From IMG/VR virus record IMGVR_UViG_2529292922_000010: 64,000 bases of DNA, one strand, 5' to 3'. The notes under the pieces were generated by a model. It saw only the letters and a program-made list of their open reading frames with translations, was not told the DNA's origin and made no database searches. The DNA is from a virus. Lineage: Duplodnaviria > Heunggongvirae > Uroviricota > Caudoviricetes. The translations under genes and the position numbers were made by a program. Shown piece after piece: positions 14,472 through 15,079 of the stretch (position 1 is its first letter; every line of letters begins with the position of its first letter).

Positions 14472-15079
14472 TCTTTAAGAGTCATCTGCGGAATACCTCC
14501 CATTTTCCCGCATGAAACAACGTCAATCTGTTCACGCGCAGACTGGAATAACAAAGGCAGGTGACTTAGATTTTTTGGCGTGCCGCCGGAGTGAACGCGT
14601 GGTTCTTGTGTAGCGTCAACGCCCACCAGGGCGACATGTTTGAATCCGATATGGAAAGCCAGGTTCAGAGCACCATATGCACTATTGCCGCTGGCAATTT
14701 CATTCTCATCTTCGCAAAGGCCGAAATGTGCGGACCAGCGCCACGCCCACCACTCGGGAGAATTCGTATTTTTTGGCTCCATGCCGCGTTCAGCCACACG
14801 ACGGAAGCACAGAACGCCATCTCTGACTTCACGTTCTTTAACATCGGGTAGTGCCATGCAATAACAAACACCACGGCGACGGCGGCCACGACCAACGCGC
14901 CGCATATTGTCTGGGGATGGATCAAGGGTGAAAAAATAAGAAGCGCGGTTAAGCCAGTCGATGGCCCCATTGACCGCTATAATCGGCACTCCGCGCGGCG
15001 CAACAAAGTTTGCGGCGCTTGGGCCACTGCCGACGATAATAACGCGATCACTGCCTCTAAATTTATTCTTGGGAAACAT
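14453..15079 (-). CDS. Rossmann-like enzyme with N-terminal GSGPS motif, paralogue A, 208 aa
   Basis: VIIVGSGPS...IIAVN; paralogous to upstream gene; possibly MptE/DUF115-like transferase (unverified). Confidence 0.45.

Follow-up and report, generated by a model that had tools for sequence, protein, structure and literature searches.

Two genes of a tailed phage lie one behind the other on the same strand, and the second begins about a hundred bases before the first has ended. The question raised by this locus is whether such an overlap is real and, if so, whether both reading frames matter over its whole length. The initial annotation, made from the sequence of the 64,000-nucleotide stretch studied here (the window), had described an out-of-frame overlap of about 100 bp between two paralogous genes. 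It offered a fortuitous read-through after a frameshift, overlapping coding or translational coupling as explanations.

The pmgO/pmgP locus and its products

The overlap is present as described, with an exact length of 103 nt including the stop codon. Both frames are open throughout it, pmgP being in the -1 frame relative to pmgO, and each product has homologues. The operon, its two overlapping genes and the parts of the overlap are:

13081..15769, minus strand: operon pmgN-pmgO-pmgP-ppp-pmgQ, from the open reading frames and the P1 annotation
14977..15639, minus strand: pmgO ("paralogue B" of the initial annotation), open reading frame of 220 aa, stop codon TAG at 14979..14977
14453..15079, minus strand: pmgP ("paralogue A"), open reading frame of 208 aa, ATG at 15079..15077
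14977..15079, minus strand: the 103-nt overlap
15040..15079, minus strand: overlap core, nt 1-40, encoding PmgO C188-L200 and, in the -1 frame, the PmgP leader M1-V13 (about 12 residues)
14977..15039, minus strand: overlap tail, nt 41-103, encoding PmgO L201-L220 and the TAG
15092..15095, minus strand: GGAG, a Shine-Dalgarno-like motif for pmgP, 12 nt upstream of its ATG, formed by pmgO Arg182 (AGG) and Ser183 (AGC)

The window is a P1-type phage-plasmid. Over a 1.3-kb segment its DNA is 99.5% identical to Escherichia phage P1 and 97.7% identical to P7, the E. coli plasmid NZ_LR882054.1 is 100% identical to the window copy over the same segment, and the window PmgO is 100% identical to that of P1. 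Matches at 95% identity or more were obtained for 586 P1-type plasmids. The pair is the same locus as pmgO/pmgP of P1 (AF234172, pmgO 79592..80254 and pmgP 80152..80778) and hdmB/hdmC of P7 (AF503408), with no structural difference, and the identical 103-nt overlap is annotated in both records. The overlap is therefore already known; the P1 and P7 annotations have shown it for two decades. It is also found in 180 of the 180 P1-lineage loci that were fetched, representing 70 distinct haplotypes; as some contigs were fetched repeatedly, haplotypes and sites were counted, not loci.

Upstream of the operon, the P1 record carries an annotated promoter, PpmgN, and an operator for the C1 repressor, Oppp. 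Our scans found no sigma-70-like promoter on the minus strand within the operon and only weak terminator-like matches. Other junctions of the operon also overlap. As annotated in P1, pmgN and pmgO share a second long overlap of 59 nt (15581..15639, minus strand). The 5' end of pmgO is uncertain; the candidates are M1 (15639) and M12 (15606), both of which lack a good Shine-Dalgarno sequence. In many public records the pmgO product is given as only 161-174 aa long (P0002-P0004). The annotated 19-nt overlap of pmgP and ppp (14451..14471, minus strand) may be a start-codon miscall, and an in-frame ATGATG at 14456..14451 would make an ATGA-type junction with the pmgP TGA at 14455..14453. A restart of ppp at this ATGATG would presumably match the N-terminus of the lambda phosphatase (an 11-residue stretch against MRYYEKIDG). 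The next junction, ppp/pmgQ, is a 4-nt overlap.

The two genes had been called paralogous, and they are indeed paralogues, although distant ones. Pairwise BLASTP between PmgO and PmgP is weak (E = 0.003) and covers only the N-terminal VGSGPS...IIAVN motif. The two families align clearly, however, in a profile-profile comparison (hhalign probability 98.4%, E = 7e-15, 162 columns), and therefore they are distant paralogues. PmgO matches phrog_4603 ("alpha-2,3-sialyltransferase") over aa 25-202, while PmgP matches phrog_2111 over its full length, from residue 1. Both proteins score below the gathering cut-off of 34.6 against PF01973 (MptE-like), PmgO with 23.4 bits and PmgP with 20.9 bits, and several homologues carry a precomputed match to this family. 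A search of solved structures by sequence gave only marginal matches for PmgO (MptE and CstII, E = 0.06-0.3) and no match for PmgP.

The AlphaFold model of PmgO (pLDDT 86, pTM 0.83) has its best fold matches in the flagellin glycosyltransferase Maf (5MU5, E = 6.7e-5, TMq 0.57) and the sialyltransferase CstII (1RO8, E = 6.7e-4, TMq 0.54), both at a sequence identity of 12-14%. Unlike these two, PmgO consists of just one minimal domain with about 200 aa. PmgO and PmgP are thus distant paralogues with a predicted Maf/CstII-like glycosyltransferase fold.

In distant phages (JK004, phiNP, Xoo-sp13 and the contig L211), genes resembling pmgO, pmgP and pmgQ occur together as a conserved module of three. 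The ppp gene lies between pmgP and pmgQ in P1/P7 and in pCVMN1543, but not in JK004, phiNP, L211 or Xoo-sp13, and pmgQ itself belongs to phrog_1962 ("glycosyltransferase"). The module, together with the Maf/CstII-like fold of PmgO, suggests a putative glycan-modifying system with LPS or the virion as its target. PmgO homologues in Pseudomonas phage PAJU2 and in the Klebsiella jumbo phage vB_KvM-Eowyn are labelled "structural protein" by their depositors, and in D3-like phages the homologue sits among the head genes, which is a hint that some lineages use the protein in the virion.

In P1, pmgO and pmgP are dispensable for plaque formation in the laboratory (PMC10695390). In the same study pmgN (15581..15769, minus strand) is essential by CRISPRi, and non-essential by knockout in earlier work cited there, while the genes downstream of it, pmgO, pmgP, ppp and pmgQ, score as non-essential. 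In-frame deletion mutants of pmgO, pmgP and pmgQ are listed in the supplement of the P1 virion proteome paper (PMC9024508), the main text of which does not mention PmgO or PmgP.

A probable internal start, a conserved core and a variable tail

The ATG at 15079 and the GGAG in front of it, both given in the initial annotation, are present in the sequence. The A of this ATG is the third base of the codon that precedes Cys188 of PmgO, its TG comes from the Cys codon itself, and the ATG is found at the same place in 13 enterobacterial-type lineages, some at only 31-47% protein identity. In these lineages the codon before the cysteine, which may stand for Gln, Lys, Thr or Ala, has A as its third base throughout. 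Most members of the PmgO family have Cys188 (invariant in a five-sequence alignment), and Phe189 is near-invariant. Arg182 is invariant, and in all lineages with the internal start its codon and the next one make up GGAG, GGGA or AAGGA at a distance of 10-12 nt before the ATG. The internal ATG is absent from L104, L211 and Xoo-sp13 (L006); L211 and Xoo-sp13 also lack the purine-rich motif, whereas L104 keeps CGG GAA.

No ATG, GTG or TTG occurs between M1 of PmgP and its VGSGPS motif, which in the form (V/A)(G/A)SGPS is conserved in PmgP homologues and in the paralogue PmgO. Since there is no other start before the conserved motif, the ATG at 15079 is very probably the one at which pmgP begins. 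The 12-nt spacing from the Shine-Dalgarno-like motif is long and counts against this arrangement. Folding of the RNA at the start site and over the overlap gave energies no better than shuffled sequences, a small hairpin around the GGAG being not significant, and an Rfam scan of 14000..16000 at E <= 1 returned no match.

The conserved C-terminus of PmgO was located by alignment of its orthologues, as the initial annotation had proposed, and the family profile ends at aa 202. Residues C188-L200 form a conserved segment of 13 residues that includes the beginning of the C-terminal helix, and in the shortest homologues only 11-12 residues follow Cys188. The profile-profile comparison places the C-terminus of PmgP near PmgO residue 194; a direct reading of the similarity between a ten-residue segment of each protein places it near residue 200. 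In the PmgO model, the pLDDT is 96 for residues 191-200 and then drops to 80 and to 68 in the tail, while the C-terminal helix runs on through the tail to residue 218.

Polymorphism among the 70 P1 haplotypes divides the overlap at the same place. The counts are small, with nine sites in the tail, and come from related haplotypes:

pmgO only, 560 nt: 77 segregating sites, 59 synonymous and 18 nonsynonymous
pmgP only, 524 nt: 87 segregating sites, 62 synonymous and 25 nonsynonymous
overlap core, 40 nt: 0 segregating sites against 6.05 expected (Poisson P = 0.0024)
overlap tail, 63 nt: 9 sites, in PmgO 8 nonsynonymous and 1 synonymous, in PmgP 6 synonymous and 3 nonsynonymous

With 14.3 sites per 100 nt, the tail is as polymorphic as the single-coding flanks (13.8-16.6). 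Read in the PmgO frame, the ratio of changes in the tail differs from that in the rest of pmgO (Fisher P = 0.0002), whereas in the PmgP frame there is no difference between the tail and the rest of pmgP (P = 0.72).

The comparison between lineages, measured as mean pairwise identity by codon position in the 13 lineages, reveals the same division. The part that is only pmgO shows the usual wobble pattern (0.54/0.65/0.40). The tail, which is read in the +1 frame relative to PmgP codons 14-35 and contains the region of the GSGPS motif, has its wobble confined to the PmgP frame (0.82/0.84/0.39). In the core (0.74/0.71/0.59) no position is free. Purifying selection in both frames is thus seen for nt 1-40 but not for nt 41-103; the core is doubly constrained, and the tail evolves as if pmgP alone mattered.

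Overlap length in relatives and by chance

Tandem pairs of pmgO-like and pmgP-like genes were drawn from annotated phages, plasmids, GTDB genomes and IMG/VR contigs. Their overlaps range widely in length:

Xanthomonas phage Xoo-sp13: 4 nt (ATGA)
Brevundimonas metagenome-assembled genome: 7 nt
L104: 11 nt
Zhongshania: 13 nt
Escherichia phage EP_H11 (L005): 37 nt
Chimaeribacter (L010), L108 and L109: 40 nt
Pantoea alvi: 49 nt
Cronobacter phage JK004 (L003), Salmonella plasmid pCVMN1543, L172 and L181: 70 nt
Citrobacter phage phiNP (L004): 94 nt
L103: 100 nt
P1/P7 lineage: 103 nt

A scan of IMG/VR with the PmgP homologue of EP_H11 gave no match. In the 13 enterobacterial lineages a core of 37-40 nt is kept, while the total length ranges from 37 to 103 nt. 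Where a relative stops earlier, the stop codon can be traced to a few bases. At +40 Chimaeribacter has GTG-A (TGA) where P1 has GTT-A (TTA), at +49 Pantoea has GTA-G (TAG) where P1 has GTC-G (TCG), each a single-base difference, and at +70 JK004 has CTG-A (TGA) where P1 has GCA-A (CAA). This is 3'-extension by displacement of the stop codon, the orthologues ending earlier through point changes at stop positions. The PmgO tails of the relatives are absent or unrelated, with 0 to about 23 residues of differing sequence.

In one contig, L211, the PmgO-like and PmgP-like domains are fused in frame. The fusion protein (P0051, 376 aa) is encoded at 3001..4131 of L211, which is the Logan contig SRR30564046_80989. 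It has an internal Met preceded by GAAGGA and a faint precomputed Pfam match to WaaZ_KDO_III. As this is a single contig, an assembly error is possible.

How long an overlap would be expected by chance was estimated by a simulation in which the PmgP protein, the position of the ATG and the first 39 nt were fixed, and synonymous codons were resampled by the codon usage of the window. The overlap reached at least 103 nt in 38% of the trials (P = 0.38), with a median of 79 nt. The start of PmgP is rich in Gly, Ser, Pro and Ala, and therefore few positions allow a stop in the pmgO frame. The length of the overlap is thus no more than chance gives and needs no special explanation. The conserved internal start site, in contrast, exceeds what chance gives.

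Probable origin of the overlap and comparison with known systems

We suggest, and consider likely, that the junction consists of a start of pmgP's own inside pmgO, a doubly constrained core of about 40 nt and a neutral tail left by a drifted stop codon. Ribosomes would initiate pmgP de novo at the embedded Shine-Dalgarno motif and ATG, while others would read pmgO through to the TAG at 14977. The 37-40 nt of the core would then encode both the last conserved segment of PmgO and the PmgP leader of about 12 residues. Beyond the core, the pmgO frame would stay open because the Gly/Ser/Pro/Ala-rich N-terminus of PmgP rarely makes stops in it, so that the first stop could drift between lineages, lying in P1 63 nt beyond the core. 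The roughly 20 residues appended to PmgO would probably be translated, without selection. Translation of pmgO may keep the pmgP start site unfolded or transiently occlude it. As for the order of events, it is likely that an ancestral short overlap of 4-13 nt, as in the distant relatives, came first, that an upstream ATG was then adopted with a 5' extension of pmgP by 36 nt, and that the stop of pmgO drifted downstream afterwards as a 3' extension.

The explanations offered in the initial annotation are partly borne out by these results. For the last 20 or so codons of PmgO the read-through does appear fortuitous; however, it goes back to a drifted stop codon and not to a frameshift. Overlapping coding holds for the first 37-40 nt, as the shortest enterobacterial relatives keep the ATG inside the conserved PmgO segment, but not beyond. 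Translational coupling in the sense of termination and reinitiation is implausible in P1, given that the pmgO stop comes 100 nt after the pmgP start, although it fits the distant relatives with overlaps of 4-13 nt.

Could the whole 103 nt nevertheless be functional, with the 20-residue tail of PmgO selected, for instance, for docking to PmgP? All P1-lineage loci have an overlap of the same length, the model helix continues to residue 218, and the emergence of long tails (94-103 nt) in three lineages, P1, phiNP and L103, could hint at tolerance or a weak benefit. Against this, the tails of the relatives are unrelated in sequence and vary from none to about 23 residues, eight of the nine SNPs in the P1 tail change PmgO at a normal density of sites, and the length is as chance predicts, so that dual coding of the whole overlap is unlikely. 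Alternatively, faulty sequencing might explain the extended frame, or this genome might have acquired it recently through a frameshift or the loss of a stop codon. The initial annotation had reasoned that orthologues ending earlier by a point difference would point to such an artefact, and close relatives do end 11-22 codons earlier. However, the same stop is found in the 180 loci and 70 haplotypes, including the P1 and P7 references and independent assemblies, and the pmgO frame is continuous with the conserved domain. The extended state is fixed across the P1 lineage, and the probability of an artefact is negligible; the population data refute it. An annotation artefact of another kind, in which pmgP really starts downstream, for example at the GTG of V31, and the genes barely overlap, has a precedent in the phiNP record, which begins its pmgP homologue at the equivalent of V31, and co-directional overlaps above 60 bp are mostly mispredicted start codons (Palleja et al., PMC2478687). 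A start at V31 would delete the conserved (V/A)(G/A)SGPS motif, and no start codon lies between M1 and that motif; moreover, 13 lineages have the upstream ATG in the same position and the match of PmgP to phrog_2111 begins at residue 1, all of which makes the downstream start extremely improbable.

It has also to be considered that a programmed -1 frameshift within the overlap produces a two-domain PmgO-PmgP enzyme beside the separate proteins. The pmgP gene is in the required -1 frame, another phage contig encodes the two domains as a natural in-frame fusion (376 aa), and two heptamers of the form X_XXY_YYZ lie in register in P1:

15076..15070, minus strand: T_TTC_CCA, slippery heptamer in the -1 register, in P1 and P7, judged incidental
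15064..15058, minus strand: A_AAT_TTA, slippery heptamer in the -1 register, in P1 and P7, judged incidental

In P1 these heptamers are there because the conserved CFP and INL codons produce them, and JK004, phiNP, Chimaeribacter and EP_H11 lack them or carry a different sequence. No stable RNA structure follows them (z = 0.09 and 0.33 against shuffles), and pmgP has a conserved ATG and Shine-Dalgarno motif of its own. A programmed frameshift is accordingly very improbable. The broader idea that the production of the two paralogues is tied, either by pmgO ribosomes gating the pmgP start or by a -1 slip at A_AAT_TTA that makes a fusion, is in our view quite improbable. If true, it would fit PmgO and PmgP acting as a heterodimeric glycosyltransferase, and the natural fusion P0051 of L211 points that way.

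With an own start and a drifted stop as the preferred reading, the junction can be compared to known overlaps. Among 338 genomes no real co-directional overlap longer than 60 bp was found, and the longest real one, holD/rimI, has 32-56 bp with a genus-specific length (PMC2478687). The two cases are alike in being co-directional, out of frame, conserved across genera and variable in length between lineages, and in both the same DNA encodes one protein's C-terminus and the other's N-terminus. They differ in that pmgO and pmgP are phage paralogues and that their open reading frames overlap by up to 103 nt, although the constrained 37-40 nt are within the holD/rimI range. In the model of start and stop displacement (PMC3887535; categories iii and v of PMC2478687), there is likewise a 3' extension to the next in-frame stop and a downstream start inside the upstream gene, as in pmgO/pmgP. 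However, PMC2478687 classes such extensions as errors, whereas the P1 extension is a real state that is fixed in its lineage. Coupled junctions of the ATGA type resemble the 4-13 nt overlaps of the distant relatives and the 4-nt ppp/pmgQ overlap, while the pmgO stop of P1 is 100 nt downstream.

The mechanism at pmgO/pmgP is thus ordinary and no new one is revealed. What the locus offers is a clean and well-sampled example of a long overlap that arises from an embedded start and neutral drift of a stop codon. Its relevance is mainly for annotation, as the usual practice is to take co-directional overlaps above 60 nt for errors (PMC2478687). In the public records of JK004 and phiNP the pmgO homologue is not called, in that of phiNP the pmgP homologue is also truncated, with the SGPS motif lost, and in that of EP_H11 the pmgP homologue is not called. 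The practical lesson is that gene callers mis-annotate the pmgO/pmgP pair in the relatives of P1.
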